Of a DNA stretch of 64,000 nucleotides, positions 7,279-36,458 are shown in pieces (the first letter of the stretch is position 1; each line of letters begins with the position of its first letter). The DNA comes from a virus. The notes beneath the pieces were generated by a model. The model saw only the letters and a list, made by a program, of their open reading frames with translations. It searched no databases and was not told the origin of the DNA. The stretch lies in IMG/VR virus record IMGVR_UViG_3300023202_000336, positions 32,001 to 96,000 of that record; one strand, given 5' to 3'. The position numbers and the translations under genes were made by a program.

Positions 7279-10094
7279 CACTCGCGAAGAAGATCGAGAA
7301 GAGACGGCGCGCGACCATGAAGGGCTCGAAAGGTAATTTGAGCCAGCACCCCGTCCGTAACCTTCATGCTCCGCGTAAAGCGAAGCTGGACGGCGACGGC
7401 TGGGAGTACTTCTACAAGCAGGCGATGCAGAAGTTTGCAGCCGAAGAGAGGAGTCGGCTGCGCCATATCCTTTATGTAATGGGCCGATCTCTCCAGGCTA
7501 TAAGGCCCGAGGCGCTTCAGAAGTTCGACAATAATCCGATGAAGTTTACCAATTATCTTATGGAGAATTCTGAGCATATTATTCCGACCGTGAGCGCTTA
7601 TAGTGCGATTACCGGAGATCCAGAGTTCGCGAGAGCTGCACGGTATCTGACTAGTCAGACGACCGGTCTCGAAAATATCGATGAAGTTAACGATGCGCTG
7701 AAGATAGAAGGACTCGACCTGCTCGGAAGCTTAGCGGTGGTAGGAACTCCGATAAAGGGGCTTACGAGACAGGCTGCGGAGTGGGGACCGAACGCTTATG
7801 CGATACATTATACGCTCGATCAGGTTTCGGGAGGGAAGGCTCGCGAATACATTGCCGAGGCGATAGAGCCACATGTGGACAAGTTGGAAGCGCATATCAA
7901 TGTTCATGAGTCACAGGCGAAGCTCAATAACGCGTTGATGTCGGGGGCTGGCGAGGAGGAAATTGAAGGTCTTCGGAGTCAGCTTCGGAATAACCGTGAA
8001 CGACTTATCGTCGAGAAGTCGCAAGGTTTCGCCCCTGATTACGAGACGACCGCGAAAGAAGTATCGGCTATGCGAGAGCTTGGTCTCGACGGGACAAAGC
8101 TTCTCGCTGAATCTTTTGCGATCGGTCTTTCTCCTATACAATATCCATGGATTCGATTTGGGCTCGAGCACTCTGGCCTCGGGCCAACCGCTATTCAGCG
8201 TACCCGAACCGAGGCGGAAGCGCGTGCTAGAAACGTCTCTGACCCAGGGGTTGAAGGCCAAACTTTACTACGAGGTATCCCTGGGACACCCTATAGGCCT
8301 GGCGACACCGTTACTCCTGAGATAAGGAGCGAGCTTCAACAGAAGGGGGTCGAGACTATCGCGGTAGTTCCCCCTGAGAGTACTGCTGAGAGATCGGCAC
8401 GTTTGGGCGCCGAGATTTCGTCGACAATAGCTGAATCGGCGGTCGGTATGAATGCTCTCCGGAGGGCGAGAGCCGCGGCGAAAGCGGCTCCGCGTGGATC
8501 ATCAAGGCTGTTTACTGCGGCCGGAAAAGCTGGGAGAGGAGCCGCTGCGTTTGGGAAAGCTCTCGCGAAATACTCTCCTCTTATAAGAGGAGTGATAGGG
8601 GGTGCAGAAGGCTATCATGCGATGAAGCCGGGGGCTCGTGAGCAGGTCTCGCAGCGGATAGCGGATATATATCGAGAAGAGAGAGATCTTCCTTGGTACG
8701 AGAGGGCTGGACGTGCGGCGCGGGATATCGGTGAAGGAGTCACCGGTTTAGGAGACCCGCAGCAGGCTCGAGCGCGACTTGCCGCCATGTGGGGTGCCCC
8801 TGGGCCCGAGGGGAAGTCCCGCGAAGAGATTCTTCAGGAACTTGAGCGTACTGAGAACTTCCGGGAGATGACTGCGCAAGCCGCATCAGATGTAACGGAT
8901 ATCATGCCGGGGATCGATCCCATTCGTGCCGAATGGATGGGCGCGACGATTGCGCTCAATCGCCTCCGTATAGCGGAGGGCGAACGCGCCGGTCCCGGGT
9001 ACGTTGCTGACCCTGCGCTTCGTGCACGCATTGAAGGGATGTCTTCGGAAGAACTTCAGACGGAGCTTACTGAGGCGGAGCGTCAGGCTTATCACACTCA
9101 CGCCTTCGATGAAGCGCTGCCTCATATACTCGAAGGCCACCACCCGTACGACGTAACGACGATTGAAAATGCTCGTAGACTTCTGCATCAGATGGGGCCT
9201 GCCGCATTTTCTCGGATGTTTTTAGATGCGGTCGACGAGCAGATAGTACCTACGAGACATGCTCTTGGGAAGCAGCTCCTTCGGCCCAGTGGAAACATTC
9301 CGACAGGTACTATTGTTACTCCCGAGATACAGCAGAAACTCCGTAGCGAGGGGGTAGAAGGCGTCGTAGCGGCGACATATTATCCGAATAGAGAGTTGAT
9401 GACCTATCTTCAGGAAGGTTCGAAAACTCCCGAGGGCGAGAGTAATCTTCTTCCTTATAGAGTAGATCCCGAGAAAAGACCGTTGGTTGCACGATTCACT
9501 GATCGTACGGAGCAGCCGCTTCGTCATCGCATGGAGCAGCAGCGCGAGAGAGCGCATAAGATTCGGAGACGACGTTGGAGAGAGCTGGGGAGGGCGCATC
9601 AGAAGGAGCTCCGTGAGCGAGAGCGGGCACAGCGAAGCGCTGAAACAGAGCGACGGCTCAGCGAAATGGACCGGGAGTTTGAGGAGGAATATCAGAGGTG
9701 GGAGCAAGCCCGTCGTCGACAAGACCGTCAGCAGCAAGAGGCGATGGACCTCCGTCACGCTCAGCAGTCGAAGCTGACGCAACGGGTACTCGACTGGAGT
9801 CGAGGCCGCCGTTCTCCGACAAGAAGGCCTACGATACCGGCGGGGGTGGCTCGTGCTGAGATTGCGCAGCATCTTCAGCGCAAGGGACAGCTTACCCCCG
9901 GTACCAGGAGAGCGATCTCCGAGGCTCGGCATCTCCCTCCGGCGGGGCCGCAGCAGCAGAAGGCGCTTCCGCAGACGCGTTTGAGTGATTACAGAGGTCA
10001 GTTCGAGCCCCCGTCCGTTGACGTCCAGGGTTCTACAGCGCAGAATGTATTCGCGGACGCAGGTCCGCTCGATCTCGTGGAACACGGACCTTAG
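7275..10094 (+). CDS. Large hypothetical protein (939 aa, Cys-free, Arg/Glu coiled-coil C-terminus)
   Basis: Long ORF coupled to neighbours. Two internal PG(D/T)T(V/I)(V/T)PEI..L..GV modules. N-terminal YKQAMQKFAAEE motif. Confidence 0.8.
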   Translation: MTLAKKIEKRRRATMKGSKGNLSQHPVRNLHAPRKAKLDGDGWEYFYKQAMQKFAAEERSRLRHILYVMGRSLQAIRPEALQKFDNNPMKFTNYLMENSEHIIPTVSAYSAITGDPEFARAARYLTSQTTGLENIDEVNDALKIEGLDLLGSLAVVGTPIKGLTRQAAEWGPNAYAIHYTLDQVSGGKAREYIAEAIEPHVDKLEAHINVHESQAKLNNALMSGAGEEEIEGLRSQLRNNRERLIVEKSQGFAPDYETTAKEVSAMRELGLDGTKLLAESFAIGLSPIQYPWIRFGLEHSGLGPTAIQRTRTEAEARARNVSDPGVEGQTLLRGIPGTPYRPGDTVTPEIRSELQQKGVETIAVVPPESTAERSARLGAEISSTIAESAVGMNALRRARAAAKAAPRGSSRLFTAAGKAGRGAAAFGKALAKYSPLIRGVIGGAEGYHAMKPGAREQVSQRIADIYREERDLPWYERAGRAARDIGEGVTGLGDPQQARARLAAMWGAPGPEGKSREEILQELERTENFREMTAQAASDVTDIMPGIDPIRAEWMGATIALNRLRIAEGERAGPGYVADPALRARIEGMSSEELQTELTEAERQAYHTHAFDEALPHILEGHHPYDVTTIENARRLLHQMGPAAFSRMFLDAVDEQIVPTRHALGKQLLRPSGNIPTGTIVTPEIQQKLRSEGVEGVVAATYYPNRELMTYLQEGSKTPEGESNLLPYRVDPEKRPLVARFTDRTEQPLRHRMEQQRERAHKIRRRRWRELGRAHQKELRERERAQRSAETERRLSEMDREFEEEYQRWEQARRRQDRQQQEAMDLRHAQQSKLTQRVLDWSRGRRSPTRRPTIPAGVARAEIAQHLQRKGQLTPGTRRAISEARHLPPAGPQQQKALPQTRLSDYRGQFEPPSVDVQGSTAQNVFADAGPLDLVEHGP

Positions 10095-12170: not shown

Positions 12171-13010
12171 ATGCAGAAAGCGGCTGCCCACGAGTGGGCA
12201 ACAGACCCGGGGTACATCCCTGTATTTGCTCTCGGCGGTGCGGCGCTCGGAGGCGGGGCTCGTTTACTGAAGAACCTCTTCGACCTTGGAAGACGTGGCC
12301 CGACGAAGTCTCCAGTGGAGATAGCGCGCCCTCTTGCGGCGCTCTCTGAGGTTCCGGTCGAGGTCTCTAAAGAGGAGGCCGAGGAGTTGCGTAAGCGCGG
12401 CGTCAAGGTTCGGAGGATGCTTTCGAAAGAAGGCGCTCATAAGAAGGAAGGTATTTCACGACTGCTGGGGTCCGCTGGACTTCTCGGTCTTGGAACCCTT
12501 TCGACCGTCGGCGGGTGGCATCTCGCCGATACGCTTATCGATGCTGCTCGGAAGCGGGCGGCGAAGAAAGATGTCGAAGACGTGAAGAAGCGGATACGCC
12601 GTATCCTCGAGGAATCGCCGTCTAATCGTGATGACGAGAAGCTCTTCGGTTACATGAAGGCGGCCGAAGACAAGTACTTCAAGAAAGAAGCGATCCTGAA
12701 GGACATTCCGGTGATTCTTGGCGGGAGCCTCGGTATTAGCGGCGTTCTTGCGGGCCTGGCCGCTTACAATCGTTTGCAGCGGTCTGCTGAGGCGTCTCCT
12801 AAGTTGACCGCATTGAAGTCTATGCTTGCTCGGAGACTTCCGCAGCGTCCGAGTATGACGATGGTGCCTGTTCTGCGAGAAGGCGACGAAGAAGAAAAGG
12901 AGGACGAGGAGCGTATCCAGCCGCGCTTCGTTCCTGTTGAGCGGGTGAGGACGCCCGGGAGCCCAGCAGTACAGGCGGCGAGAAACCGTAGCACCTCCAA
13001 TTGGATTTAG
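12171..13010 (+). CDS. Glycine-zipper hypothetical protein with three hydrophobic helices
   Basis: FALGGAALGGGA, LLGSAGLLGLGTLSTVGG, ILGGSLGISGVLAGLAAY, each preceded by a K-x-A/G motif; no Cys. Confidence 0.75.
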   Translation: MQKAAAHEWATDPGYIPVFALGGAALGGGARLLKNLFDLGRRGPTKSPVEIARPLAALSEVPVEVSKEEAEELRKRGVKVRRMLSKEGAHKKEGISRLLGSAGLLGLGTLSTVGGWHLADTLIDAARKRAAKKDVEDVKKRIRRILEESPSNRDDEKLFGYMKAAEDKYFKKEAILKDIPVILGGSLGISGVLAGLAAYNRLQRSAEASPKLTALKSMLARRLPQRPSMTMVPVLREGDEEEKEDEERIQPRFVPVERVRTPGSPAVQAARNRSTSNWI

Positions 13011-13018
13011 AGGACGTT

Positions 13019-16000
13019 ATGCCGTTTACGGCTTGGTCCCCTGATCACGCTCGCCCAGGACTGGGGCCGGCTCCATTCGATCCGCCGACTCCGGCCGCGA
13101 AGCCCGTGCAGCTGCGTCGATTCGATGACATCGAACAACAGCGAAAGGCTATCTACGAGTCCGCGCGGAGTGCGTTCCAGAATCTTCGTCCGATTCAGAA
13201 CGCGTCGTACCGAATCGAAGTAGCTGACGTCGATTACGACACCCCTGATTTCGAGCCTTCGATCTCCGACGAAAAGAAGGCGCTTCTGCAGAGCGGGTCG
13301 CTTCATCGCCCCCTTAAGGGCACGGTTCGTCTGGTTGATCAGAATACCGGAGACGTAGTTGGTGAGGAGCGGACGACGCTCGCACACGTGCCACACCTCA
13401 ACAGTCGTGGTATGGTGATCCGAAAAGGAGTTGTCTGGGTTCCGCGGAACCAGGCCCGCTTGAGACCCGGCGTGTATACGCGTCACAAGAAGAGTGGCGG
13501 AATAGAGGCGCAGTTCAATGTGAAGGGTGGTCGCGCCTTCCGTATCGAGCTCGAGCCAGAGTCCGGTCTTTTCAAGATGAATATCGGCCAGTCGACCACC
13601 CGTCTCTATCCGATTCTTCGTGCGATGGGTATCACTGATGACGCGATGCGAGAGGCGTGGGGTGACGAGCTGTTCAAAAAGAACTATCGACGTGAATCCG
13701 GGAGCGACGACAAAGACCTGAGAAAGGTCGTGAAGAAGCTCGGACCTTCGGGGGTGACTGTCGAGGATGATCAGCTCGTTGACGTATTAAAGGAGTCGGT
13801 ACAGAAGTCGAAGGTCGATCCGGACGTCATGGAAATCACGATGGGGGAGCGAGCTGAGAACGTCGCCCCTGAGCATCTCTTTCAGGTGACGAACAAGATT
13901 TTGAACGTGAGTCGCGGGACTGCTGACGGCGATAACCGCGATTCGCAGGCGTTCCAGTCGATTCATTCTGCCGAGGATTTCATACGGGAACGGCTCGAGA
14001 AAGATCAGGTAGGAGCGCTGCGTAAACTCCTCTGGAGGGCGACACGAGAGAAGAAGCTTCCGAAGGTCCAGTCGGGGCTGATGAATAAGAACATCTCTTC
14101 GATTTTCGAAGGCTCCGGTCTCGCGGTCGCTGCAGAGGATATCAACCCGTTCGAGATTCACGACCTACGGCAGGGGATCATTCGACTCGGTGAGGGCGGG
14201 ATCAGCTCAGAGAGGGCTGTGAGCCGCGAGGCACGCGGTGTGCAAGCGAGTTACGCAGGTCTGATCGACTCGGGGAGAGGGCCGGAGTCGGGAAGACTCG
14301 GGTTGGATCTGCGTGTGACCGATGCAGCGCAGAAGGGCGACGACAACCAGCTCTATACCGAGGTGAGAAATCTCAAGACCGGTGAGACTGAAACTGTGTC
14401 TGCGAGAACACTTTCTTCGAAGATCGTCACCTTCCCTGGCGAACTCTCGTCCGATACCAAGAGAATCCCGGCGATTAAAGGCGATAAGATCGTTTACGTC
14501 CCGAAAGACGAGGTCGATTACGAGATTGCGAGTCCGAATGACATGATGTCACGGGCGACCGCGATGATCCCGTTTCCAGAGTCGATCAAGGGCCAGAGGC
14601 TGCTCATGGGCGCGCGTATGACCTCCCAGGCTCTTCCGCTGGAAGAGGCTGAAGCGCCTTATGTGCAGACAGCGTCGAAGGACGGGACTAGCCTTCATAA
14701 ACAGATGGGCCCGGTCGTTGGTGCCCGGGTTTCTCCGGTCGGAGGGGTTGTAACGAAGATTTCTCCCGATTTCATTGAGCTCGCGGCCGATGACGGCAAG
14801 AAGCGTCGTATCGACCTTTACAACAACTATCCGACTGCTCGTAAGACGATGATACATAACGAGCCCACGGTGAAGAAGGGTCAGCGGATCAAGGAGGGTG
14901 ATCTCGTTGCGAAGTCAAATTTTACGAGCGACGACGGGACTGCGGCCGTAGGGCGTAATCTTCGTACCGCATTTGCGATCGCAGAAGGCAATACGATCGA
15001 AGACGCGTTCGTCATTTCGGAGTCGGCAGCGAAGAAGCTCACGTCGCAGCATCTCTATAAGCATGACGTCGATTTGAAGGATCTCGAATCGACGGATAAG
15101 AAGCGGTACGTTTCGATATACGCTGATAAGTGGGGTCCCGAGCAGCTCGATCGATTGGATGATGACGGGGTCATTAGAGAAGGAGCAACGGTAAACGCCG
15201 GAGACCCGGTTGTTCTCGGTTTTGCGAAGAAAAAGAAGCGAGGTGTCGGGGCGCTGATGCGTTCGCCAAGAGATGCTTTCGCTGATAAAACGCAGACGTG
15301 GAATCATCATTCGCCGGGCGTAGTGACGGACGTGGTGAAGGGGCGTAAAGGGATAAAGGTTACGCTCAAATCAAAGGAGGCGATGAAGCCGGGCGACAAA
15401 CTGTGCTATAGCCCTGACCACGAAATACTTACACAGCGCGGCTGGATACCCGTCTCAAAGACACTACACTCTGATCTGATAGCCTCGCTAAACCCGGATA
15501 CGGATGAAATTGAGTACGTTCGTCCGGTGGAAATACATTCTTTCGATCACGATGACGTAATGTATGAGGTCGAGTCTACACAGGTGTCGATGTGCGTTAC
15601 TCCCGACCACAAAGTATATGCTTCTAAAAAGAAGGATAAGAAGGATCTCGATTATCATCTTTTTGAGGCGCGAGAGTTGTTCGGAAGGACATATCGTCTC
15701 AAAAACTCTGGGAGGTGGGCAGGAGAGTCTCCAAGTCACATCGTGTTCCCTGAGTGTCAGGTTAAACACGGTGGAATAGGTAACTCATATCGCACTATTC
15801 CTGAAAAGGCAATATCAATACAGGCTTATTTCGTTCTGTTAGGCCTCTTTCTGTCTGAGGGGAATGTATTTAAACACGTGAAGAGCGGGAGCTACGGTAT
15901 AGACATAACTCAGTGTAAAGAAAGTAATATAATCAAAATAAAGCACGTGTTGGATAGCCACGGTATTAAGTATTCTCGTAATAAGACTAAGTTCCGGCTT

Positions 16001-18544
16001 TACGGGCGTCAGTTGCTTAATTATTTTGAGCAATTTGGAAAGTGCCACGAGAAATATATACCCAACTGGGTTTTTTCGTGTAGCAGTGAGGACCTTAAAA
16101 TACTCTTCGAATGGATGATGCTTGGAGATGGGCACTATAGTGCTACATGCGCTTCTTATGTGACTACGTCTAAAAATCTCGCCGACGACTTTCAGAGGCT
16201 TTGTCTTCATATCGGATACGCCGGAAAGGTAAAAGCTACTAATAGAGAGCCGTGTATTCTCAAGTTTCCGGGTAGAGAAGACGTCACTATTCCTAAAACA
16301 CGGTACGACGTAAGCGTGTATAGGGGTAAGCTGAATCCTACCATTAATCACAGCCATACGAGGCACCAGCGCGGGCAGTCTGAGAGATGGGTTAATTACA
16401 CGGGAAAGGTGCATTGTGTAACTCTTGAGAGGAATCATATACTTTATACGCGTAGGAACGGGAAGGCTCATTGGAGCGGCAATACCTCGCGGTACGGGGC
16501 CAAGGGTGTAATTTCAGAGATTCGACCTGATGAGCAAATGCCGACTGACGACGACAGTCGACCGGTCGAGGTGATTGCGAATAGTCTCGGAGTGATCTCT
16601 CGGACCAATCCTTCCATGCTTGCTGAAGCTATTCTCGGAAAGATCTCAGAAAAAACGGGCAAGCCGTACGTGATCAAGGGGTTCGGAAATTCCGGTGACG
16701 TTGTGGAGTATGCGCTTCGCGAAGGAGTTAAGCATGGGGTCGTAAGTGTCGATGACGAAGGCAATATAACCGACGTTGGCGTACTCACCGATCCGAGGGA
16801 TAACCGGAAGATCAAAAATATGTTCACCGGAATCCCGTATCTGATGAAGCTACACCACGTTGCAGAAGCGAAGATCAGCAGCCGTGATACCGGCGGTTAC
16901 ACCGCTGAAGGAATACCTGCCCGAGGCGGGAAAGAAGGCAGCAAGCGGATTGGGCTTCTCGACGCGCATAGCTTGCTCTCAGCCGGAGCTACCGAGTTTC
17001 TCAAAGATGCGAAGCTCATTCGTGGGCAGCGTAACGACGAGTACTGGCGAGCATTAAAGGCGGGTGATACCCCGTTGCAGCCAACGGTTTCGTTTGCGAA
17101 TGAGATGTTCAAGTCGCAGCTTCGAGCAGCTGGGGTCAATCTTCGTGAAAAAGGGACACGTACCGGTCTCGCGCCGCTCCTTGATCAGGACGTTGATAAG
17201 ATCGCTCAGCATGAGATTGAGCGTCCCGGCACTTTTGATTTCGAAACGATGCGCCCGATCAAAGGTGGTCTTTTCGATTTGACGGCGACTGGTGGAGCGG
17301 AAGGGACTCGGTTCTCGAAGATCACGCTTCCGAGAAAGATTCCACATCCACTTTTCGTCGAGCCGATCCAGCGGGTGCTTGGTCTGACCGGTAAGCAGTT
17401 CGAAAATGTTCTCTCCGGGAAGGAGGAGCTTCACGGCGAAACTGGCCCGGACGCGGTCGAGAAGGCGCTCAAGAGTCTTGATGTAGACCGAGAGATCGGC
17501 CTTGCGAAAGAGGAGATTCGCACCGGAAAGAAAACGCGTCGTGACAAGGCGGTGAAGAAGCTGAATTATCTTACCGGTATCAAGCAGATGGAGATCAATC
17601 CAGAAGATCTGATGATCAGCAAGATCCCGGTGATCCCTCCCCGTTTCCGCCCGATTTCGAAGGCGAAAAATATCGACATCGTCCACGACTTGAACTACCT
17701 CTATCACGACCTGTTAGAGGCGAAGAAGAACTATAACGATGCTCAGGAGGTGTTCGGAGAGGCTGACGACGAATATATGACGATGATGAATGCGGTGAAA
17801 TCCGTCGCGGGGTTGCGTGAACCGGTGAATCCGAAGTCAGTCGATCAGGGCGTGAAGGGCATTCTTCGCTACGCGATTGGAATCGGCGATAGTCCGAAGT
17901 CGGCAACCTTTCAGCGTAAGGTGATAGGAAGTGCGGTCGATACAGTCGGGCGCGGTGTTATTACGGCCGACTCGAACCTCGATATGGACGAGGTCGGTGT
18001 TCCTGAGGATATGGCGTGGAATATCTTCAAACCGTTTACGATGCGTCGACTCCGTCGCTACGGGTATTCTGCTCGTGACTCGCTCAAGGCGGTTAAGGAT
18101 CGCACCCCGGTTGCCAGGAAGGCGCTTGAGGAAGAAATGGCGGAGCGACCGGTCGTTTACAACCGCGCCCCGTCGTTGCACCGCTACAGCTACGTAGGCG
18201 CTTGGGGCAAGATCAGGGACGATGACGCGATTGGTATGCCCTACCATACTTTGAAGGGGCTGGGAGGTGACTACGACGGGGATACGGTGAACATCCATGT
18301 TCCCGTTTCGTCTGACTCGGTCGATGAGGTCAAAGAGAAGCTCATGCCGAGTAAGAACCTCTATTTCACAGGTACCTTCGAGACGCACCTCGAGCCGAAT
18401 CAGGATTATTTGGCCGGACTCTTCCTTGCGAGCATGCCGGATCCGAAGGAAGAGGTAAAAACGTTCGCAAACGAAGAAGAGGCTCGAAAGGCCTATGCGC
18501 GAGGAGAGATCAGCGCACGAACGCCGATCCGTATTCTTGCGTGA
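13019..18544 (+). CDS. rpoBC: Multi-subunit RNA polymerase, beta subunit fused to N-terminal half of beta-prime (intein-containing)
   Basis: Beta motifs: GPESGRLG, RLLMGARMTSQALPL, GNTIEDAFVIS, GDKL|TSRYGAKGVI, NSLGVISRTN, YLMKLHH. Beta-prime motifs: KIPVIPPRFRP, VDTVGRGVI, YNRAPSLHR, catalytic GGDYDGD (18263-18283). Start placed at ATG 13019 behind a GAGGA RBS. Confidence 0.95.
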   Translation: MPFTAWSPDHARPGLGPAPFDPPTPAAKPVQLRRFDDIEQQRKAIYESARSAFQNLRPIQNASYRIEVADVDYDTPDFEPSISDEKKALLQSGSLHRPLKGTVRLVDQNTGDVVGEERTTLAHVPHLNSRGMVIRKGVVWVPRNQARLRPGVYTRHKKSGGIEAQFNVKGGRAFRIELEPESGLFKMNIGQSTTRLYPILRAMGITDDAMREAWGDELFKKNYRRESGSDDKDLRKVVKKLGPSGVTVEDDQLVDVLKESVQKSKVDPDVMEITMGERAENVAPEHLFQVTNKILNVSRGTADGDNRDSQAFQSIHSAEDFIRERLEKDQVGALRKLLWRATREKKLPKVQSGLMNKNISSIFEGSGLAVAAEDINPFEIHDLRQGIIRLGEGGISSERAVSREARGVQASYAGLIDSGRGPESGRLGLDLRVTDAAQKGDDNQLYTEVRNLKTGETETVSARTLSSKIVTFPGELSSDTKRIPAIKGDKIVYVPKDEVDYEIASPNDMMSRATAMIPFPESIKGQRLLMGARMTSQALPLEEAEAPYVQTASKDGTSLHKQMGPVVGARVSPVGGVVTKISPDFIELAADDGKKRRIDLYNNYPTARKTMIHNEPTVKKGQRIKEGDLVAKSNFTSDDGTAAVGRNLRTAFAIAEGNTIEDAFVISESAAKKLTSQHLYKHDVDLKDLESTDKKRYVSIYADKWGPEQLDRLDDDGVIREGATVNAGDPVVLGFAKKKKRGVGALMRSPRDAFADKTQTWNHHSPGVVTDVVKGRKGIKVTLKSKEAMKPGDKLCYSPDHEILTQRGWIPVSKTLHSDLIASLNPDTDEIEYVRPVEIHSFDHDDVMYEVESTQVSMCVTPDHKVYASKKKDKKDLDYHLFEARELFGRTYRLKNSGRWAGESPSHIVFPECQVKHGGIGNSYRTIPEKAISIQAYFVLLGLFLSEGNVFKHVKSGSYGIDITQCKESNIIKIKHVLDSHGIKYSRNKTKFRLYGRQLLNYFEQFGKCHEKYIPNWVFSCSSEDLKILFEWMMLGDGHYSATCASYVTTSKNLADDFQRLCLHIGYAGKVKATNREPCILKFPGREDVTIPKTRYDVSVYRGKLNPTINHSHTRHQRGQSERWVNYTGKVHCVTLERNHILYTRRNGKAHWSGNTSRYGAKGVISEIRPDEQMPTDDDSRPVEVIANSLGVISRTNPSMLAEAILGKISEKTGKPYVIKGFGNSGDVVEYALREGVKHGVVSVDDEGNITDVGVLTDPRDNRKIKNMFTGIPYLMKLHHVAEAKISSRDTGGYTAEGIPARGGKEGSKRIGLLDAHSLLSAGATEFLKDAKLIRGQRNDEYWRALKAGDTPLQPTVSFANEMFKSQLRAAGVNLREKGTRTGLAPLLDQDVDKIAQHEIERPGTFDFETMRPIKGGLFDLTATGGAEGTRFSKITLPRKIPHPLFVEPIQRVLGLTGKQFENVLSGKEELHGETGPDAVEKALKSLDVDREIGLAKEEIRTGKKTRRDKAVKKLNYLTGIKQMEINPEDLMISKIPVIPPRFRPISKAKNIDIVHDLNYLYHDLLEAKKNYNDAQEVFGEADDEYMTMMNAVKSVAGLREPVNPKSVDQGVKGILRYAIGIGDSPKSATFQRKVIGSAVDTVGRGVITADSNLDMDEVGVPEDMAWNIFKPFTMRRLRRYGYSARDSLKAVKDRTPVARKALEEEMAERPVVYNRAPSLHRYSYVGAWGKIRDDDAIGMPYHTLKGLGGDYDGDTVNIHVPVSSDSVDEVKEKLMPSKNLYFTGTFETHLEPNQDYLAGLFLASMPDPKEEVKTFANEEEARKAYARGEISARTPIRILA
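15404..16483 (+). mobile_element. Intein with LAGLIDADG endonuclease in RNAP beta (360 aa)
   Basis: Starts CYSPDHEIL; block B VTPDHKV; helices LLGLFLSEGNV and WMMLGDGH; ends HWSGN, followed by Thr(+1). Inserted in the conserved GDK motif. Visibly more AT-rich than flanks. Confidence 0.93.
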
Positions 18545-18587
18545 TTGTCCATCTGGTACTGTCGCTACTCGAGAATAGGATACGTAC

Positions 18588-19613
18588 ATGACACCGTTAC
18601 AGCTGAAACTCTACAAGCGGTCCTTCGTTCCGATGGGGCCGTCCGCGGAGAAAACCGGCCAGCAGGCGTCCGGACCCGGCGGAATGCCGGTCGGTCCCGG
18701 CGCTGGCGCTCCTCCGCCTCCGGGAATGATGCCTCCTGGTGGAGGGATGCCTCTGCCTCCTGGCGGCGCCGGCGGGACGCCTCCGCCCCCGGGTATAGGA
18801 CCGATGGATCCGTCAGCTCCGATGGATCCCGCTGCGGGTGGTGCCCCTCCGGCCGACCCTATGGCTGCACTTCCTCCGATGCCGGGGGAGGAAGGGCTCG
18901 ATGTGCCACCGGAGACGCTTCCGGAGGACCTCGGAGCCGCCCCTGAGGGCGGGGGTGACGGTCTTTCTACGGCAGATGCAGAGGCGGCTGCGAAGATCCA
19001 GCAGCAGACGCTCGATATCGTCGAGCGGACGCTGGACATGGTCGGTAAGACCAAGAAGGATAAGCCGCAAGAGGGTGCCCAGGACCTGCAGCAGGACGGC
19101 CAGGAGCAGGCCGATCAACAGCAGGAAGAACCACCTCCTGAGGCTCAGCCGGGACCTATCACCGGTGAGCCCGGCTTTAGCCCGGGCATGATTAATGGTC
19201 CACTTAAGCTGGGCTCGGCATCGATTGTTACGAAGGCCCTCAAGACGGCGGCTGCTCGTCGTGCCGCTACTAAGACGGCTGCGGTGCTCACGCAGCTGTT
19301 GGTTAAGAACGCTCAGTCCTCAGCCGATATCTGGCGTAAGAAGCGTGGAATGAAGCCCGGCCAGCGCGTGACGGCTCCGAGTAAAGCGTATCGTACTGGG
19401 GTTGCTGGAGGGGCAACGGCGATGACTTCTACGCAGACTCCTACGACTACGCAGACTCCTACGACTACGCAGACTCCTACGACTACGCAGTCCTCCGCTG
19501 ATATTTGGCGTCAGAACCGTGGAATGAAGCCCGGCCAGCGCGTGACGGCCCCGACGGAGGGGGCAGGGGCGGTGACTTCTCGGCAGACTCCTACTGGTTA
19601 TTACTCTCTATGA
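18588..19613 (+). CDS. Pro/Gly-rich low-complexity protein with internally duplicated C-terminal unit
   Basis: Poly-Pro/Gly/Met N-half; two copies of SSADIWR..RGMKPGQRVTAP; TQTPTT repeats; clustered KTAA/KNAQ motifs; no Cys. Confidence 0.72.
   Translation: MTPLQLKLYKRSFVPMGPSAEKTGQQASGPGGMPVGPGAGAPPPPGMMPPGGGMPLPPGGAGGTPPPPGIGPMDPSAPMDPAAGGAPPADPMAALPPMPGEEGLDVPPETLPEDLGAAPEGGGDGLSTADAEAAAKIQQQTLDIVERTLDMVGKTKKDKPQEGAQDLQQDGQEQADQQQEEPPPEAQPGPITGEPGFSPGMINGPLKLGSASIVTKALKTAAARRAATKTAAVLTQLLVKNAQSSADIWRKKRGMKPGQRVTAPSKAYRTGVAGGATAMTSTQTPTTTQTPTTTQTPTTTQSSADIWRQNRGMKPGQRVTAPTEGAGAVTSRQTPTGYYSL
19431..19490 (+). repeat. 18-bp tandem repeat, 3.3 copies (ACGCAGACTCCTACGACT; encodes TQTPTT)
   Basis: Read directly from the sequence. 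Confidence 0.9.
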
Positions 19614-21271
19614 GGCTTGGGAAGTTCGCCTTTGGTAAGTCCGCTCAGTACCAGGGCGCACCGGTAGGTGGCGCTGGGATGATGTGGAACCCGATGGGGA
19701 TGTTGCAGCAAGCTCATCAGCAGCGTTTGCAGCACGGGCAGCGCTCCTCGGATTTCGCATATGGACCTCCCGCAGCGCCTGGATTCGTGACAGGGCAGCA
19801 GGCGGCGGTAGGAGGCGCCCAGGCGGTAGCTGGTTCAATCGGCGCGCTGATTATGGGCGTCGCGATGCCTTACATTCAGTCTGTCGCAGGCGAGGCCGGC
19901 GTTGACCTTCATCAGCCGTATCAGATCGCTTACGGGGCGAATCCGGCCGATGCTCGAGAGATCGCACGAGTCACGGGTCAGGTCATGCAGCGTCAGTTCG
20001 AGACGACCGGTGCGAGTGTTCAGGGCCTCATTTCAACGTTGGACGAGCAGGTTGAGAAGAATTTTGGTATCGAGCTTCCTCTTGAGGAGATCCGCCATCT
20101 TCCCGCCGGAGCTGTTGGAAACTTCGTTCAGCAGCTTTCTATGTTCGTTCCCGAGATTCAGACGGTTCTTTCGACGATGGATCCTCGTTATATTTCTGAC
20201 CTCTCACCGATGGTGAAGGCGACTTACGTCGCAAATAATGGTGAGTTCGATCCAAACGTATTTAGAAACGTCGTTCAGGATTTTCAGCAGTCCTACAATA
20301 AAGGGCAGTTCAGAGGAGTCCCTGCCCAGATCGCGATGCATGCGGTACAGTATGCGAAAGAGCGAGGCGGTCCTGGCGCGGGAATGCGGGAAGCGGTAAA
20401 CGCTGCGCAGTCTGCGAACGCATTCGTTCAGGCGGGACTTGCGCCGAGCTTCGGAGAGGCGCTCACGCTTGTAAACGAGGTTGATCCAACTGGTGGCCTC
20501 ATAAATCCGACGAGAGCGATTCGTTACGCATCCCAGCTGAACGAGATGGCGAAACGCGGATTCGTCGATCGGAAGCATATCTTCGAAGCCGCCCGTGTCG
20601 CTCGGCAGCAGGGTCTCCCAATTAGGGCGGCGATGACGGCAGTCGCTGGCGGCGGCCGTGCACGAACGATGGTGCGTGGACCTCGTGGAAGTGAGCTCGC
20701 GGAGACCGCGGCGAGTACGATGGCCCGCATGGGCGAGTCTGACACGATGCGGCTACTCGCGGCAGCGCACCAGCAGAGCCCGAGGGCACGGGGCCTCATT
20801 GAGCGGGCGCTCGAGACGGGCGATAACCGCCTCCTGGACCGCGTTATACAGAAGGCCCAGCAAAGCCCTCGTCTGATGGCCTCGAAGACTCATGTCGACC
20901 CTTCATACCTGATCAACCGGATGGATCCGAATATGATGCGCGGTCAGGTCATGTCAGATGTGCGGCGATTCGCTGCGCAGACTGGCAGCCGCGACCTTCA
21001 GCGGCTCGTGAACCGCCCCGAGGAGCTTCAGAGACGTCTTCGCACGCACGATTTCACTGGTCTTGATCCGCAGGCGGTTCGGTACTTGAGTGAAGGCGGC
21101 CCGACTGGCGGCCGTCTCGGTGCAGCTGCGATGACGTTCGCAGACCCGTTCGGCACCGAGTCTGACCTCTCGAGGTACCATAAGCCTCCGAAGCGGCTTG
21201 GTCTCCCGTTCCCGGAGATGAAGCCGAGCGGCCCTCCCGTGACACAGCGTTTCGATCCGGTCGAACGGTGA
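19610..21271 (+). CDS. Ala/Gly/Gln-rich helical protein (candidate ejection or tape-measure-like)
   Basis: Start set at ATG 19610 (ATGA overlap). 553 aa, hydrophobic AVGGAQAVAGSIGALIMGV segment; no Cys. Confidence 0.72.
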   Translation: MRLGKFAFGKSAQYQGAPVGGAGMMWNPMGMLQQAHQQRLQHGQRSSDFAYGPPAAPGFVTGQQAAVGGAQAVAGSIGALIMGVAMPYIQSVAGEAGVDLHQPYQIAYGANPADAREIARVTGQVMQRQFETTGASVQGLISTLDEQVEKNFGIELPLEEIRHLPAGAVGNFVQQLSMFVPEIQTVLSTMDPRYISDLSPMVKATYVANNGEFDPNVFRNVVQDFQQSYNKGQFRGVPAQIAMHAVQYAKERGGPGAGMREAVNAAQSANAFVQAGLAPSFGEALTLVNEVDPTGGLINPTRAIRYASQLNEMAKRGFVDRKHIFEAARVARQQGLPIRAAMTAVAGGGRARTMVRGPRGSELAETAASTMARMGESDTMRLLAAAHQQSPRARGLIERALETGDNRLLDRVIQKAQQSPRLMASKTHVDPSYLINRMDPNMMRGQVMSDVRRFAAQTGSRDLQRLVNRPEELQRRLRTHDFTGLDPQAVRYLSEGGPTGGRLGAAAMTFADPFGTESDLSRYHKPPKRLGLPFPEMKPSGPPVTQRFDPVER

Positions 21272-21502
21272 ATGCGCATTCACAATGAGGAACGGTTGAT
21301 GATCGTCCGTATCGTCCATGAGAACGGGAAAATCTATGATATGCCGGTCTCCCAGGTCTCGGTACATACTGAGAACGGCGACCCGTGTATGCTCGCTTAC
21401 GAGCACGCAAATCTGATAGTTTGTTCCCATGTGAACGAAAAGGACTTTGAACGGCAGTGTGCGCAGCTGAAAATCGACCGCATCGAGGTGCCCCATGCCT
21501 GA
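21272..21502 (+). CDS. Small hypothetical protein
   Basis: 76-aa ORF abutting both neighbours; start uncertain. Confidence 0.55.
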   Translation: MRIHNEERLMIVRIVHENGKIYDMPVSQVSVHTENGDPCMLAYEHANLIVCSHVNEKDFERQCAQLKIDRIEVPHA

Positions 21503-21809
21503 CTGTGCGGTAGAGCAAGAAGCAATCGAGCGTCTCAGGTCATTAACCTGTGATGCGATGATGCATTATTTCGAAACTTTCGATGAGTATCCGACGCATC
21601 TGTACGTGAATACTGGGTCTGATGCTGAGAGGATCGTGAGATCAGCGCTTGAGAGGGTCGGTACCACCGAATTTCTTTTTGCGTTGACGGTTGTTCTCCG
21701 GAAGTTCTCTTTCGGGAAATCTGATCTTTTCGTCGGTGAGGACCGGTACGCCTCGGATATGCGGCGCTGCGCGGTGTTGAGCTATCGAAATTACAGTTCA
21801 GGCTCGTGA
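21495..21809 (+). CDS. Small hypothetical protein
   Basis: 104-aa ORF, overlaps the upstream stop. Confidence 0.55.
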   Translation: MPDCAVEQEAIERLRSLTCDAMMHYFETFDEYPTHLYVNTGSDAERIVRSALERVGTTEFLFALTVVLRKFSFGKSDLFVGEDRYASDMRRCAVLSYRNYSSGS

Positions 21810-21812
21810 GAC

Positions 21813-23687
21813 ATGGCTGATATCACGACTGTTGGTACGATTCTTATTAATGACGCGCTGCCTGAGGATATGCGTAAGAAGGAGCATCGTCTCGATAAAA
21901 AAGGTGTTCACGAGCTGTTTATGGAGCTCGCGAAGAAACATCCGGAGAAATACAGCGCGGTTCTGCAAGAACTTTCGAATGTAGGAAAAACGGCTGCATG
22001 GACCGAGGGGCTGAGCGTGAGTCTCGCGGCGCTTCGTAAATCGAAAGCGAAAGAAGCGATATTGCAGCCGGTCAGAGAGAGAATCAGAGCGATCGTCGAT
22101 GACGATGATCTCAATGATGAAGAGCGAAACGAAGCTATTATTAACGAGCTTATGAAGGTTTCGAACGATCTGACGGAGGCCATTTACGAAGAGTCGAAAG
22201 CGGAGGGATCGCCTTTCGCAGTTCAGATCGAAAGCGGTGCGCGTGGAAAGAAGTCGAATCTCGCAAGTCTCCGAGGGGCCGATTTACTCGCGACTGACCA
22301 AAACGATAACTTCATTCCTGTTCCGATATGGAACTCATATGCCGAAGGGCTCACTCCGGCGCAATATTTTGCTGCGAGTTACGGGCAGCGGAAAGGTATG
22401 CTGAATACGAAGCTCGCGACGGCAGATGCTGGATTCCTCTCCAAACAGCTCGTGAACGCTGCACATCGGCAGGTTGTTACGAGGGACGAGCCTGAGGCGA
22501 CGCGCCTTCCAGTGGGCCTTCCGACGAGGACGGACGATAAAGATAACATTGGAGCCGTTCTCGCCCAGGACGTCGGTAAGTATACAGCTGGAACCGTTCT
22601 CGACGATGAGACGCTCGAAGACCTCCAGGACGAAGGTATCGAGGACATTCTCGTGCATTCGATCATGACCGAGCCGTCTGCGGACGGGGGCGTGAGTGCA
22701 CAAGCGGCAGGACATCGTACCCGTGAAGGACTTCATCAGCTGGGGGACAATATCGGTATCCCTGCCGCGCAAGCGGTTGGCGAACGATTGAGCCAGGGAT
22801 CTTTATCGGCGAAGCACTCCGCTGGAGTTTCAGATCGTGTCAGTAAATCTGGGTTCGAGTACATCAATCGCCTCATCCAGGCTCCCGAGAGCTTTCCCGA
22901 GGCAGGACCGCTCGCGGAAGAAGATGGCTTGGTCGAAGACGTCCGTGAAGCTCCGCAGGGTGGTAACTATATCCGCGTGAAGAAGCGCGAGTATTACATC
23001 CCTCCGGGCTTGAACGTGACGGTCAAGGTCGGCGACGAGGTAGAGCAGGGTGATGACCTCAGCGATGGGACGCCGCACCCAGGAGATCTGGTTCGCCTTC
23101 GCGGGATCGGCGAAGCGAGGCGGGTTTACATGCAGAACCTCAAGGAGGCGCTCGATGCCTCGGGAGTCGACGCACATCGACGCAACGTTGAGGCTGTTAC
23201 GGCCGGGCTGATAAATTGGGCACGTGTGACCGACCCTGACGGCATCGATCAGCACATTTACGATGACGTAGTTCCTTTCAACAACTTGGCTTACAGCTAT
23301 AAGCCTCGTGCTGACGCTGAAGAACTCGAACCGAAGAAGCTCGTAGGACGTTACCTGGAGGAGCCGGTCCTCCATTATACGCCAGGAACACGGGTGACCC
23401 GGAAGATCGCGAAGGATCTCGAGAAGTGGAAGATCAAGAAGGCGTTCGGTCACCAGGATCCGCCCGAATTCGAGCCCCACATGGTCCGCGGTCTTCACAG
23501 TATTTTCCACGATCCGGACTGGAGGACCCGTCTTTCAGGCTTTTATACTGCTTCGGCCTTCCAGAAATCACTTCACCGAGGGCGCGAATCTGATGTCCAG
23601 AGCACGAGTTACGTCCCGTCTCTGACGACACCGCAGGTGCTCGGCCGGCAGCTGAAGACGCTTGGCAAGTACGGTCAGCAGAGATAG
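21813..23687 (+). CDS. rpoC: RNA polymerase beta-prime subunit, C-terminal half
   Basis: ESGARG; bridge helix YGQRKGMLNTKLATADAGFLSKQL; GDNIGIPAAQAVGE; trigger loop LSQGSLSAKH; SBHM-like VKVGDEVEQGDDLSDG. Confidence 0.93.
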   Translation: MADITTVGTILINDALPEDMRKKEHRLDKKGVHELFMELAKKHPEKYSAVLQELSNVGKTAAWTEGLSVSLAALRKSKAKEAILQPVRERIRAIVDDDDLNDEERNEAIINELMKVSNDLTEAIYEESKAEGSPFAVQIESGARGKKSNLASLRGADLLATDQNDNFIPVPIWNSYAEGLTPAQYFAASYGQRKGMLNTKLATADAGFLSKQLVNAAHRQVVTRDEPEATRLPVGLPTRTDDKDNIGAVLAQDVGKYTAGTVLDDETLEDLQDEGIEDILVHSIMTEPSADGGVSAQAAGHRTREGLHQLGDNIGIPAAQAVGERLSQGSLSAKHSAGVSDRVSKSGFEYINRLIQAPESFPEAGPLAEEDGLVEDVREAPQGGNYIRVKKREYYIPPGLNVTVKVGDEVEQGDDLSDGTPHPGDLVRLRGIGEARRVYMQNLKEALDASGVDAHRRNVEAVTAGLINWARVTDPDGIDQHIYDDVVPFNNLAYSYKPRADAEELEPKKLVGRYLEEPVLHYTPGTRVTRKIAKDLEKWKIKKAFGHQDPPEFEPHMVRGLHSIFHDPDWRTRLSGFYTASAFQKSLHRGRESDVQSTSYVPSLTTPQVLGRQLKTLGKYGQQR

Positions 23688-23711: not shown

Positions 23712-26015
23712 ATGCCCAACACGAGTGAGACGGCTCTCGAGAAGACCTTTTCCGACCTGGCGTATTCACATCTCCGGGACCAGAGCCAATCGCTTCTGGA
23801 TTATCTGGTCGGATTCCAGCTTCTGAAGTCCGAGGACGACGGTGAGCGCGCGGTCGGGATTTTCGGTTTCGAGGTCGATAACGACTATTACTACGCCCCG
23901 ATCTTCTTCCTGAACGGAGAGATTCGTGGGCTCGATACGCTTTATTCGGTGAAATCGGATCTCTTTATGCCGATTACCGAGGGCTGGGTCAATCACGTGA
24001 TCAATCGTCGGCAGGCGAATCTCGGCGATTCTGACCGCCGTGACCGTCGTGCTCGTGGCATCAACTACCCGAACTACACCCGATTGAAGATCATTCCCGG
24101 CGGGTCTGGCTCGGTGAATCTGAAGTTGGCGTCTGAGCAGCGTGAGGCGATGATCACGGCGATGACTTCGGAGCGTGAGATCCCGAGACTCAACCTGATT
24201 CAGGGCCTCAAGGAGGCCGGTGCGACCGAGTTCTTCAAGGAGGCGATGGAGCGTCATCCGAGAATGCTGGAGGCGTTCAATCAGTTCTACAATGTTTTCG
24301 ATCTCGAGCCTCAGCGGAAGCAGGCGGCCGAGGAGAAAGATCTTCCCGAGCCGGTGACGATCATTACGTCGATGACGGACGAGGGGGTCGATCAGCTGAC
24401 CGACGAGCAGCGTGAGACGCTTCTTGAAGGCGGCGAGGTTGCGATCGATAACCGTCCGGAAGTCTCTCGTTCGATCCTGTACAAGAAGGAAATCAAGCAG
24501 GTACTCGAGAACCCGACTAAGGGCGGCCTCTACGATGTCCTGTGGTACGATGGTTCGGTCTATCCGGCGCTGATCGCCCCGACCGGATCGTCGAAGAATG
24601 AGGTCACGGTCTATTGCCCTGAATTCGATATGCATTGCGAGATCGACAGTCGCTGTGTGTTCATCGCCCGTCGTTACGGCGATGAAGAGTTGCGCCGCTG
24701 GCTCGAGGATAACGCGGTGCCTGCGAGCGAGGCCCGCCCTGGGCAGTCCGGTATTTTCGTGAGCACCGAAGGCGAAGGGACTGGCGCTTTCTGTATCGAG
24801 GGGGCGACCCAGGGCGTCGACGGTTTGACGATTTACATCGTGCATGACACCTATGAGATGAGGGCGCTCGACGGCCATAGCGGACTGAACGTGATAGGTG
24901 GAGCTTCGCGCGGCAATAACGGAAATCCGACGCCGAATATGTATAAGGAACTGTCTTTCGGCGGAAGCGGGATGCATCACATGATCCCCGGGTTTTCGAA
25001 TCGCCCGGCGGAGGACCCGAACTGCCGCGTCAGTTCGATTATCGTCGCTCCCGAAGGCGGGTCGAATCCTCGGTACTCGAAGGACAAGTGCATCGTCAAT
25101 GACAAACACTTCTACTTCTTGAAGCTGAACAACTTCACGCTTCGTAAGCCTGAGTACGATGACCTTAATACGGCTCGGAGAGAGGAAGAGAAGTACAACG
25201 CGCCGAAGTACGACGTTGTCTTGAGCAAGACCGATTTCGGAAACTACGATACGCTTGCTGAAGGCCTCGATAAGGTTGCGGGCGACCTCAAGTCGTGGAA
25301 CGACGGAGATCAGATCGTGATCGACAGTGAGATCGGTCGTTACTCGATGAACAAGACTGCCGCCTTCAGACACCTGATGGTCGATCAGGGGCTTGGAGAA
25401 GATGACGCGAAGTTGGTGCTCAAGGAAGCCTCGCGTCAGCCGAGTACCTACAAGATCAAGAAGGTCGCAGCGTCCGAGACCCAGCTTCTTCAGCTTCCTG
25501 ATGTCGATGATACCGATGTTGGAGGGCTGCTCTCGTCGTTCCATCGGACACAGGTCCCGTATGCCACGGCGAATCAGGCTCAGACGATCGATAACCGTGA
25601 GTTCTATCGCTACTACTCTCCGTACGGGAGTGGTGGAGCGCCGGATAATGAGACGGACACGTTCTCCGTTCTTGAAGAGGCCGGAAAGACGGGTCAGAAG
25701 GATGTCTTCGATGCAGCGGCGCTTGCGTCGTTGATCAAGAATCATAACCCGACCGATCTCGTCGATCGGTTCCTTCCGACGATCGTTTCCGGGATGGACC
25801 GTATCGGCCGGATGCTGTTCCTGATCTACTGGCACTACGAGGACTTTGAAGAGCGCTACGGGGAGAACGACCTCAGCGAGCTGATCGATAATCTCCGTTC
25901 CGTCTTCGAGCAGCTGGGAGATGTGATCATCTCGGCGAAGAAACGGACGCTTTCTGGCGATCCCGAACATTACGGAATGGAAGCAGCTCCGCTTCTTGAA
26001 GGCGGAATGTCGTGA
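23712..26015 (+). CDS. Multidomain hypothetical protein (767 aa), candidate inner-head protein
   Basis: Long ORF with domains separated by KLAS, KQAA, KVAG, KTAA and KVAA motifs. Confidence 0.78.
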   Translation: MPNTSETALEKTFSDLAYSHLRDQSQSLLDYLVGFQLLKSEDDGERAVGIFGFEVDNDYYYAPIFFLNGEIRGLDTLYSVKSDLFMPITEGWVNHVINRRQANLGDSDRRDRRARGINYPNYTRLKIIPGGSGSVNLKLASEQREAMITAMTSEREIPRLNLIQGLKEAGATEFFKEAMERHPRMLEAFNQFYNVFDLEPQRKQAAEEKDLPEPVTIITSMTDEGVDQLTDEQRETLLEGGEVAIDNRPEVSRSILYKKEIKQVLENPTKGGLYDVLWYDGSVYPALIAPTGSSKNEVTVYCPEFDMHCEIDSRCVFIARRYGDEELRRWLEDNAVPASEARPGQSGIFVSTEGEGTGAFCIEGATQGVDGLTIYIVHDTYEMRALDGHSGLNVIGGASRGNNGNPTPNMYKELSFGGSGMHHMIPGFSNRPAEDPNCRVSSIIVAPEGGSNPRYSKDKCIVNDKHFYFLKLNNFTLRKPEYDDLNTARREEEKYNAPKYDVVLSKTDFGNYDTLAEGLDKVAGDLKSWNDGDQIVIDSEIGRYSMNKTAAFRHLMVDQGLGEDDAKLVLKEASRQPSTYKIKKVAASETQLLQLPDVDDTDVGGLLSSFHRTQVPYATANQAQTIDNREFYRYYSPYGSGGAPDNETDTFSVLEEAGKTGQKDVFDAAALASLIKNHNPTDLVDRFLPTIVSGMDRIGRMLFLIYWHYEDFEERYGENDLSELIDNLRSVFEQLGDVIISAKKRTLSGDPEHYGMEAAPLLEGGMS

Positions 26016-36457: not shown

Positions 36458-36458
36458 A

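Follow-up and report, generated by a model that had tools for sequence, protein, structure and literature searches.

A tailed phage with a complete genome of about 180 kb probably carries in its virion a two-chain, sigma-using RNA polymerase (RNAP), the only one that it encodes, for transcription of its early genes. The evidence comes from the window, by which we mean the whole 64,000-nucleotide (nt) stretch of DNA that was analysed: bases 32001–96000 of a 180,134-bp virus record (IMGVR_UViG_3300023202_000336) that has direct terminal repeats and is rated complete. The phage encodes a complete RNAP catalytic core, divided between two chains that together keep every key catalytic element. Chain 1 joins the β subunit to the N-terminal half of β′ and is interrupted by an intein; chain 2, encoded further downstream, is the C-terminal half of β′. 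A preliminary description of this DNA had noticed the layout and the deletion of both β′ zinc sites, and its account of the architecture is supported in every testable detail. That account is incomplete: it missed an intein in the β active site, a total lack of cysteine (Cys), a sigma-like gene and the setting in a head module, which point to a packaged enzyme and not to a mere curiosity of layout. The features of the enzyme are as follows (lengths in amino acids, aa).

13019–18544, + strand: fused RNAP gene, comprising β, an intein and the β′ N-half, 1841 aa (Pfam domains; Protein Data Bank (PDB) chains)
13019–15403, + strand: β N-extein, aligning with RpoB 1–~1066 and ending in GDKL, which holds the first Lys of the β active-site motif
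15404–16483, + strand: 360-aa intein inside the β part, with a two-motif LAGLIDADG homing endonuclease
16484–17155, + strand: β C-extein, from TSRYGAKG to GVNLREKG, equivalent to RpoB ~1067–1337
17156–18541, + strand: β′ N-half, RpoC ~19–554 by alignment, ending ARTPIRILA
21813–23687, + strand: β′ C-half (chain 2), 624 aa, no Cys (Pfam Rpb1_5 and RPOC_hybrid; PDB β′ alignment)
56124–56906, + strand: sigma-70-family-like factor, 250–260 aa, no Cys, with an alternative TTG start at 56154

The fused gene is a single open frame from 13001 to 18544. It opens at a TTG at 13001, giving the 1847-aa translation from which chain 1 aa positions are counted here. The ATG at 13019 is the likely start, because it has a Shine–Dalgarno-like GAGG 7 nt upstream and yields 1841 aa, the length of the database copy. 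Pfam domains occur in the order Rpb2_6 (E value 4.6e-36), LAGLIDADG_3, Rpb1_1 and Rpb1_2. A PDB search matched β chains to the first part of the protein and β′ chains to residues ~1454–1845; the best chain matches reached E 8e-59, and both parts are clearly of the bacterial type. With the intein removed, chain 1 is 1487 aa long, with residues 7–1021 aligning with Salmonella RpoB 1–1337 and residues ~1030–1485 with RpoC ~19–552 (Salmonella numbering). β runs directly into the N-terminal part of β′, as the preliminary description had it: within one frame, the alignment passes from RpoB to RpoC ~19 at about nt 17150–17170, with no real linker. The clamp zinc domain is deleted, also in line with that description, and GGLFDLTATGGAEGTRFSKITL, located exactly at 17264–17329, stands in place of a ~32-residue four-Cys segment (RpoC C70, C72, C85 and C88). 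The protein gp206 of Salmonella phage Arash has the same deletion. The clamp helices of chain 1 lie at about aa 1551–1619. The β′ catalytic loop DYDGD is at 18263–18283, and the chain, which had been said to stop soon after it, ends 86 residues further on. Because β is joined head-to-tail to β′ ~19–554, both double-psi β-barrels are on one chain, as had been proposed; the marks of both are present, namely DYDGD for β′ and the two β lysines of GDK...GAKG once the intein is removed.

The intein separates GDKL from TSRYGAKG, so the precursor is without an intact β active site. Intein-less relatives are contiguous at this position (GDKLSxRYGxKG), and the insertion motif corresponds to the E. coli and Salmonella β motif GDKMAGRHGNKG at 1063. 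The element begins with Cys, ends in HWSGN before a +1 Thr and contains two LAGLIDADG motifs (Pfam LAGLIDADG_3), and thus has the N-terminal Cys, C-terminal Asn, +1 Thr and paired LAGLIDADG motifs of a class 1 intein; its penultimate residue is Gly and not the usual His. Its G+C content is 44.4%, compared with 54–56% in the flanking extein sequence, and all 10 Cys of the fused open reading frame (ORF) lie within it. This stretch also matches inteins of unrelated phage genes. We infer that splicing would restore the β active-site motif GDKL/TSRYGAKG.

Chain 2 starts with MADITTVG, equivalent to RpoC ~568–575. Its start at 21813 lies 3.27 kb and four ORFs (341, 553, 76 and 104 aa) beyond the end of chain 1, and the TTVG at which the preliminary description had the remainder of β′ begin is at 21825–21836. 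Its alignment with β′ takes in the bridge helix, the trigger loop and the hybrid domain. At the break, β′ has lost no more than the 14 residues that form the tip of a surface hairpin (RpoC ~555–568), and the same break is found in Arash. At the second zinc site, the reported replacement of the ligands was borne out, RpoC C814, C888, C895 and C898 being P, E, S and A, respectively (22476–22502 and 22656–22712). The sequence of the trigger loop (22779–22829) is GERLSQGSLSAKHSAGV; it retains the catalytic His but has Leu and Ser at the positions of Met932 and Arg933, and a Lys is found two residues later.

We observed no Cys in the 2111 residues of the chain 1 exteins (1487 aa) and chain 2 (624 aa). 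The ORFs of the genome contain 1.27% Cys on crude gene calls, at which about 27 would be expected and the probability of finding none is about 2e-12; at an assumed 0.4% Cys, this probability is still about 2e-4. Cys was also absent from 84 of 85 C-half homologues and, among 16 fused representatives of intein-less size, from 11, with a single Cys in two others. Many neighbouring head-block proteins are Cys-free as well, and those encoded in the 97–180 kb part of the genome mostly are not. For comparison, the virion RNAP subunits of phiKZ (gp80, gp149, gp178 and gp180) contain 16 Cys in 2614 aa (0.61%), against 33 in 2850 aa (1.16%) for the non-virion subunits (gp55, gp68, gp71, gp73, gp74 and gp123).

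The preliminary description had seen no alpha or omega gene in the window, and this extends to the complete 180,134-bp genome, in which the Pfam models for alpha (PF01000 and PF01193) and omega (PF01192) found no match; these models matched all 14 control genomes. No second RNAP set was found in the complete genome, which has one set only. The sigma-like protein matched Pfam Sigma70_r3 (E 3.8e-9), showed a weak r4 match and no Pfam match to Sigma70 r2, and matched the sigma factor family phrog_351 (E 3.6e-14). It shares 27% identity with Arash gp10 (E 3e-20) and has 11 homologues, two of them apparently on contigs that also carry the β′ C-half. In Cys counts on 10 sequences of this family, among them that of the window, all 10 were Cys-free. 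When the sigma-like protein was modelled in a complex with chain 1 aa 1390–1847, the score was 0.80, compared with 0.02 for the best of three controls. This passes a mark that 58 of 80 solved complexes attained, as did 2 of 110 mismatched pairs. The runs agreed in at least 73% of contacts, with a predicted local distance difference test (pLDDT) value of at least 74 for the partner, and the modelled contacts fell on chain 1 aa 1551–1619, the equivalent of the β′ clamp helices. Binding of sigma at these helices is a textbook interface with solved structures. Because this pair has already been solved, the pass indicates a kept likeness and is not proof of binding. On this model, the sigma-like factor probably supplies promoter recognition through the β′ clamp helices. 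When a promoter motif was sought among intergenic 9-mers, no promoter candidate emerged, only a 31-mer resembling a CRISPR (clustered regularly interspaced short palindromic repeats) repeat.

The fused and split RNAP is not unique to this phage but belongs to a large, diverse family in metagenomes that has cultured members too. Megablast of the window against deposited phages gave no match; among cultured phages, those with the most similar proteins (26–30% identity) are Salmonella phage Arash (180.8 kb) and Vibrio phages D69, D148 and D181 (~187 kb). We searched 1.84 billion cluster representatives (50% identity) with the post-intein part of chain 1 and obtained 1328 matches below 1e-30, the best 150 all being below 1e-153. 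None of these best 150 contained the β′ C-half, and in those with a single aligned stretch the query mapped to the C-terminal end of the protein. The end is shared: ...A.RAY.RGEI..PI.I closed 12 of 12 intein-less-sized representatives whose tails were inspected. The lengths of the fused representatives cluster near 1450–1490 aa and then step up to about 3000 aa; for many, the alignment falls into two to four stretches, a pattern that we read as putative insertions of one to several inteins. The C-half has at least 340 homologues, of ~615–635 aa or longer when they contain intein/Hint or LAGLIDADG domains, on contigs of up to ~217 kb. A viral-contig search with the C-half alone returned no related loci, and the relatives came from protein searches. 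The gene layout recurs as well. In the loci L006 and L014 and a JGI contig, a fused gene of 1467–1475 aa is followed by two to five small genes and then the C-half, and in Arash about 4.7 kb of other genes separate gp206 (1525 aa) from gp216 (606 aa).

In Vibrio phage D181 (L002, 5848–11362), and likewise in D148, annotation divides the fused gene into two ORFs of 514 and 1006 aa, between which lie small ORFs and a homing-endonuclease gene (7674–8291 in D181). In D69 the fused gene matches as one annotated gene. The interruption in D181 and D148 is possibly an intron or endonuclease insertion, and a possible model for the origin of such splits.

Two further groups of relatives were found. One consists of single chains of 2017–2127 aa (P0182–P0212 and P0238) that contain all the β and β′ Pfam domains and come from contigs of 88–185 kb. 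Exactly four Cys with the spacing of the second zinc site were present in 13 of the 19 full fusions examined, these four plus one extra in five, and a single Cys in one. The one gene map of a full fusion placed it near SSB and P22_AR_N genes, with no obvious head block. In the other group (L014 7579–11868 and P0127–P0180), the C-half has a C-terminal extension of 500–1100 aa and contains 0–1 Cys; one member, P0139, has AAA_33/AAA_18 kinase-like Pfam domains. We considered whether the extension is the 767-aa protein encoded next to chain 2 in the window, fused on, and rejected this, as BLAST found no similarity. A quick maximum-likelihood tree of the C-half region, rooted on 14 bacterial β′ sequences, placed the phage family in one clade (Shimodaira–Hasegawa-like approximate likelihood ratio test (SH-aLRT) support 100) and united all split forms in a single clade (96) next to the full fusions. 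The earliest branches of the split clade lead to Arash and the Vibrio phages, and the window's clade groups with the extension clade (100). The rooting is provisional because the outgroup is small and taxonomically narrow. Taken with the Cys data, the tree suggests as the simplest order of events that fusion came first, along with loss of the first zinc site, that a single split followed, and that the second zinc site was lost once the Arash lineage had diverged.

The RNAP genes lie in a head-morphogenesis block, with the portal gene on one side and the capsid gene on the other, and nearly all genes of the window are on the + strand. The order of portal, RNAP chain 1, chain 2, gp218-like, gp222-like and capsid genes is common to the window and Arash. 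The surrounding genes are the following.

3833–6703, + strand: portal gene, related to Arash gp204, with its own intein
18588–19613, + strand: intervening ORF 1, 341 aa, Pro/Gly/Met-rich and of low complexity, no Cys
19610–21271, + strand: intervening ORF 2, 553 aa, no Cys, no known family
21272–21502, + strand: intervening ORF 3, 76 aa
21495–21809, + strand: intervening ORF 4, 104 aa, three Cys
23712–26015, + strand: 767-aa protein directly 3′ of the β′ C-half, related to Arash virion protein gp218
34273–35211, + strand: major capsid protein, related to Arash gp226

Packaging of the RNAP is the most likely reading because the homologous Arash proteins are found in particles, because the genes are located in the head block and because zinc sites and Cys are lost, as in most neighbouring virion proteins. 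In the particle proteome of Arash, gp206 was the most-detected protein, with 3516 spectra and 100% coverage, and the particles also held gp216 (1210 spectra, 89% coverage), gp218 and the 'RpoS-like' gp10 (PMC10585845). The authors of that study propose a role in early transcription and allow for carry-over of abundant enzymes in purified particles (PMC10585845). We envisage that chain 1 would gain activity only after the intein has been spliced out, that the join of β to β′ probably takes over the assembly role of the alpha dimer and that the sigma-like factor would direct the enzyme to promoters. Late in infection, the RNAP would be packed into the capsid, to be delivered later along with the DNA, so that early genes could be transcribed without the host polymerase. 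The loss of zinc sites and Cys would suit storage outside a cell and possible unfolding for passage through the tail. A more specific proposal, to which we give somewhat less than an even chance, is that a self-sufficient holoenzyme of three products (the two chains and a small sigma, with no alpha, omega, zinc or Cys) is kept in the capsid and travels through the tail together with the DNA; in this case, the loss of zinc and Cys would be an adaptation to storage and to refolding on ejection, and the stepwise series of relatives would record that adaptation.

Several points weigh against a packaged early polymerase. Packaging is argued from a relative with only 28–30% identity, and the Arash authors concede that abundant enzymes may be carried over into purified particles (PMC10585845). 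A single RNAP in a late-looking operon leaves the transcription of middle and late genes unexplained. Low Cys content extends throughout the structural block and therefore marks a virion-like composition and is not proof of packaging; moreover, the virion RNAP known from phiKZ shows a Cys depletion of only about twofold, the same trend but far weaker. Independence from host alpha is a prediction. Full activity of the enzyme and splicing of its intein are not guaranteed either, because the trigger-loop position of Arg933 is occupied by Ser and the intein is without the usual penultimate His.

An alternative is a real two-chain RNAP that is not packaged but made during infection for middle and late genes, with the host polymerase transcribing the early genes, which we consider unlikely. 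The signal in Arash particles would then be carry-over of an abundant protein, as the Arash authors themselves raise (PMC10585845). The late-type operon in which the RNAP gene lies would fit this reading, as would the presence of one RNAP set, unlike phiKZ-type phages with separate virion and non-virion enzymes; many neighbouring genes are Cys-poor too, and a regional bias could contribute to the Cys loss. However, Arash gp206 outranks the capsid protein in detection, with gp216 and gp10 found alongside (PMC10585845), and the placement between portal and capsid genes is kept across 28–30% identity. The total removal of Cys, including four conserved zinc ligands, in at least 85 homologues would also be hard to explain for a purely cytoplasmic enzyme.

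Rather less probable is that the two chains form a catalytic core that borrows the alpha dimer, and perhaps omega, of the host to make a hybrid enzyme. The phage is without its own alpha or omega, and alpha-binding surfaces might persist in β and β′ parts of bacterial type. By contrast, a packaged enzyme that works on arrival could not depend on assembly with host alpha, the phiKZ/AR9-type enzymes are active without alpha (PMC7598289), and the covalent β/β′ join would remove the main need for an assembly platform. Very improbable is a rejoining of the β′ halves after translation by a split intein to give one full chain. This family is rich in inteins, with up to several per gene, and a sister clade has full single-chain fusions, but the chain ends lie inside β′ homology and leave no room for intein halves of ~100 aa and ~35 aa. 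There is also no N-intein initiated by Cys, Ser or Thr, and the MADITTVG start of chain 2 has no preceding ...HN with a nucleophile. With only a 14-residue hairpin tip missing between the chains, we rejected this candidate. An artefact or decay (a mis-assembly, as the preliminary description had also envisaged, a frameshift joining rpoB to rpoC, or a pseudogene broken by inserts) has nothing in its favour beyond the odd layout and is hardly credible, given a complete genome with direct terminal repeats, conserved catalytic motifs, the same fusion point and break in at least 150 independent clusters (at 50% identity) and four cultured phages (Arash and the three Vibrio phages), and Arash peptides covering 100% of gp206 and 89% of gp216 (PMC10585845).

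None of the four intervening ORFs had a Pfam or PHROG match. Where the window has the 341-aa ORF, the relative L006 has a 200-aa protein of similar composition, and the 553-aa ORF is absent from the matching site in L006 and the JGI contig. The 767-aa downstream protein and an upstream 279-aa ORF had no Pfam or PHROG match, and an Atlas structure look-up with the 767-aa protein returned only template modelling (TM) scores below 0.3. The portal gene resembles Arash gp204 over nt 5165–6376 and has a Pfam Intein_splicing domain at aa 132–440. Because this gene also has an intein-splicing domain, at least two genes of the head block are interrupted by inteins.

Just 3′ of the capsid gene, two tandem + strand genes occupy 35438–37463, a stretch of low G+C content (~49–50%). 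The first codes for a helix-turn-helix (HTH) and an Endonuclease VII domain, with 18 Cys in the protein; in the second, an HTH shows a weak Sigma70_r4-like match. We rejected the two Sigma70_r4 HTH matches as sigma factors, as these are Endonuclease VII/HTH proteins, and the genes look like insertions of the homing-endonuclease type. A CRISPR-like array with a ~31-nt repeat ending in CGTATCTGAGAC lies past the end of the window, at genome positions 109,670–110,188 (77670–78188 in window numbering). About 20 dispersed copies of the repeat occur at 1.3–2.9 kb and 107–180 kb of the genome. Its variants are found mainly outside the structural block, with about 28 on the + strand versus 1 on the other. 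The scattered copies are probably regulatory or RNA-processing sites.

The closest known counterparts of the window's enzyme are in Arash (gp206, gp216 and gp10; OQ632216, PMC10585845) and in Vibrio phages D69, D148 and D181, which have the same fusion point and the same break before TTVG. They likewise share the clamp zinc-domain deletion, the position between portal and capsid genes and a genome of ~181–188 kb. The window has the features of this Arash-type family: the RGEI..PI.I end, a C-half of ~600–635 aa starting at TTVG and the head-block location. Arash differs in keeping the four Cys of the second zinc site, which the window's clade is without, at 28–30% identity; its intervening genes also differ from those of the window and are partly on the other strand. 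The Arash paper labels the genes plainly as β and β′ and does not mention a fusion or split (PMC10585845). The preliminary description knew of no such combination and had asked whether close relatives already document it. The layout is indeed present in the deposited Arash and Vibrio records, but there it is annotated simply as β and β′, and we found no paper that describes it. More generally, we found nothing published on the fusion, on the split or on the missing zinc sites and Cys, in a search that covered the subscription literature thinly, so that absence is not proven. The genes themselves were already public, for example in Arash and Vibrio phages D69, D148 and D181.

The full-fusion uncultured phages belong to the same RNAP family (26–31% identity to the C-half), with the same join and no clamp zinc domain, and differ in having an unsplit β′ and, in most cases, precisely the four second-site Cys. 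Together, the relatives form a natural series that runs from full fusions through split forms that keep the second zinc site to split forms that have lost it, and a cultured member that grows on a laboratory Salmonella strain makes these ideas testable now.

Among cellular enzymes, the bacterial RNAP, whose core-plus-sigma mode of action the window's enzyme would follow, shares both barrels, the bridge helix and the trigger loop with the window's enzyme, and has two β′ zinc sites, an alpha dimer and omega, none of which is encoded by the phage. Helicobacter and Wolbachia have RpoB–RpoC fusions in which, as in the window, the C terminus of β is joined to the N terminus of β′. These are cellular enzymes with an unsplit β′, zinc sites, alpha and omega, unlike the window's enzyme. 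The γ and β′ of cyanobacteria and plastids are likewise encoded by two genes split after the catalytic barrel, with β unfused in cyanobacteria. By alignment, the end of chain 1 falls at about residue 559 of γ chain 8syi_D, which has 624 aa. Judged from this alignment, the break is about 65 residues earlier than the cyanobacterial one and so not the same, and the TTVG segment belongs to the second chain in the window.

Other tailed phages, namely the mReC phages (PMC7481178), Cobetia phage Carin-5, Rhizobium phage RHph_TM30 and Vibrio phage Va2, also encode β and β′ of bacterial type. In Carin-5, RHph_TM30 and Va2, an unsplit β′ of ~930–1190 aa lies among genes annotated for replication and nucleotide metabolism, and in Carin-5 a separate β gene and a sigma gene adjoin that for β′. 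The fusion, split and zinc sites are not discussed in the mReC paper (Weinheimer & Aylward 2020; PMC7481178).

The phiKZ/AR9-type RNAPs (PMC7598289, PMC7824862) resemble the window's enzyme in having β/β′ relatives, no alpha or omega and a β′ split after the catalytic barrel, and one version of these enzymes is packaged in the head (PMC7598289, PMC7824862). They differ in consisting of four to five chains with β also split and nothing fused, in forming two paralogous sets, in having no sigma homologue and in being far more diverged from cellular RNAP; the window's phage, by contrast, has an intact, fused β, a single set and a sigma-like gene. If the window's enzyme functions with two chains and a sigma-like factor, it would be the simplest sigma-type multisubunit RNAP known. 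It would then follow that a covalent β/β′ join can stand for the alpha platform and that both 'structural' β′ zinc sites are dispensable, and the enzyme could yield a compact, host-independent transcription module for synthetic biology. If packaged as proposed, it would represent a third kind of virion-carried RNAP, beside the single-chain enzymes of N4 and crAss phages and the multi-chain enzymes of phiKZ.

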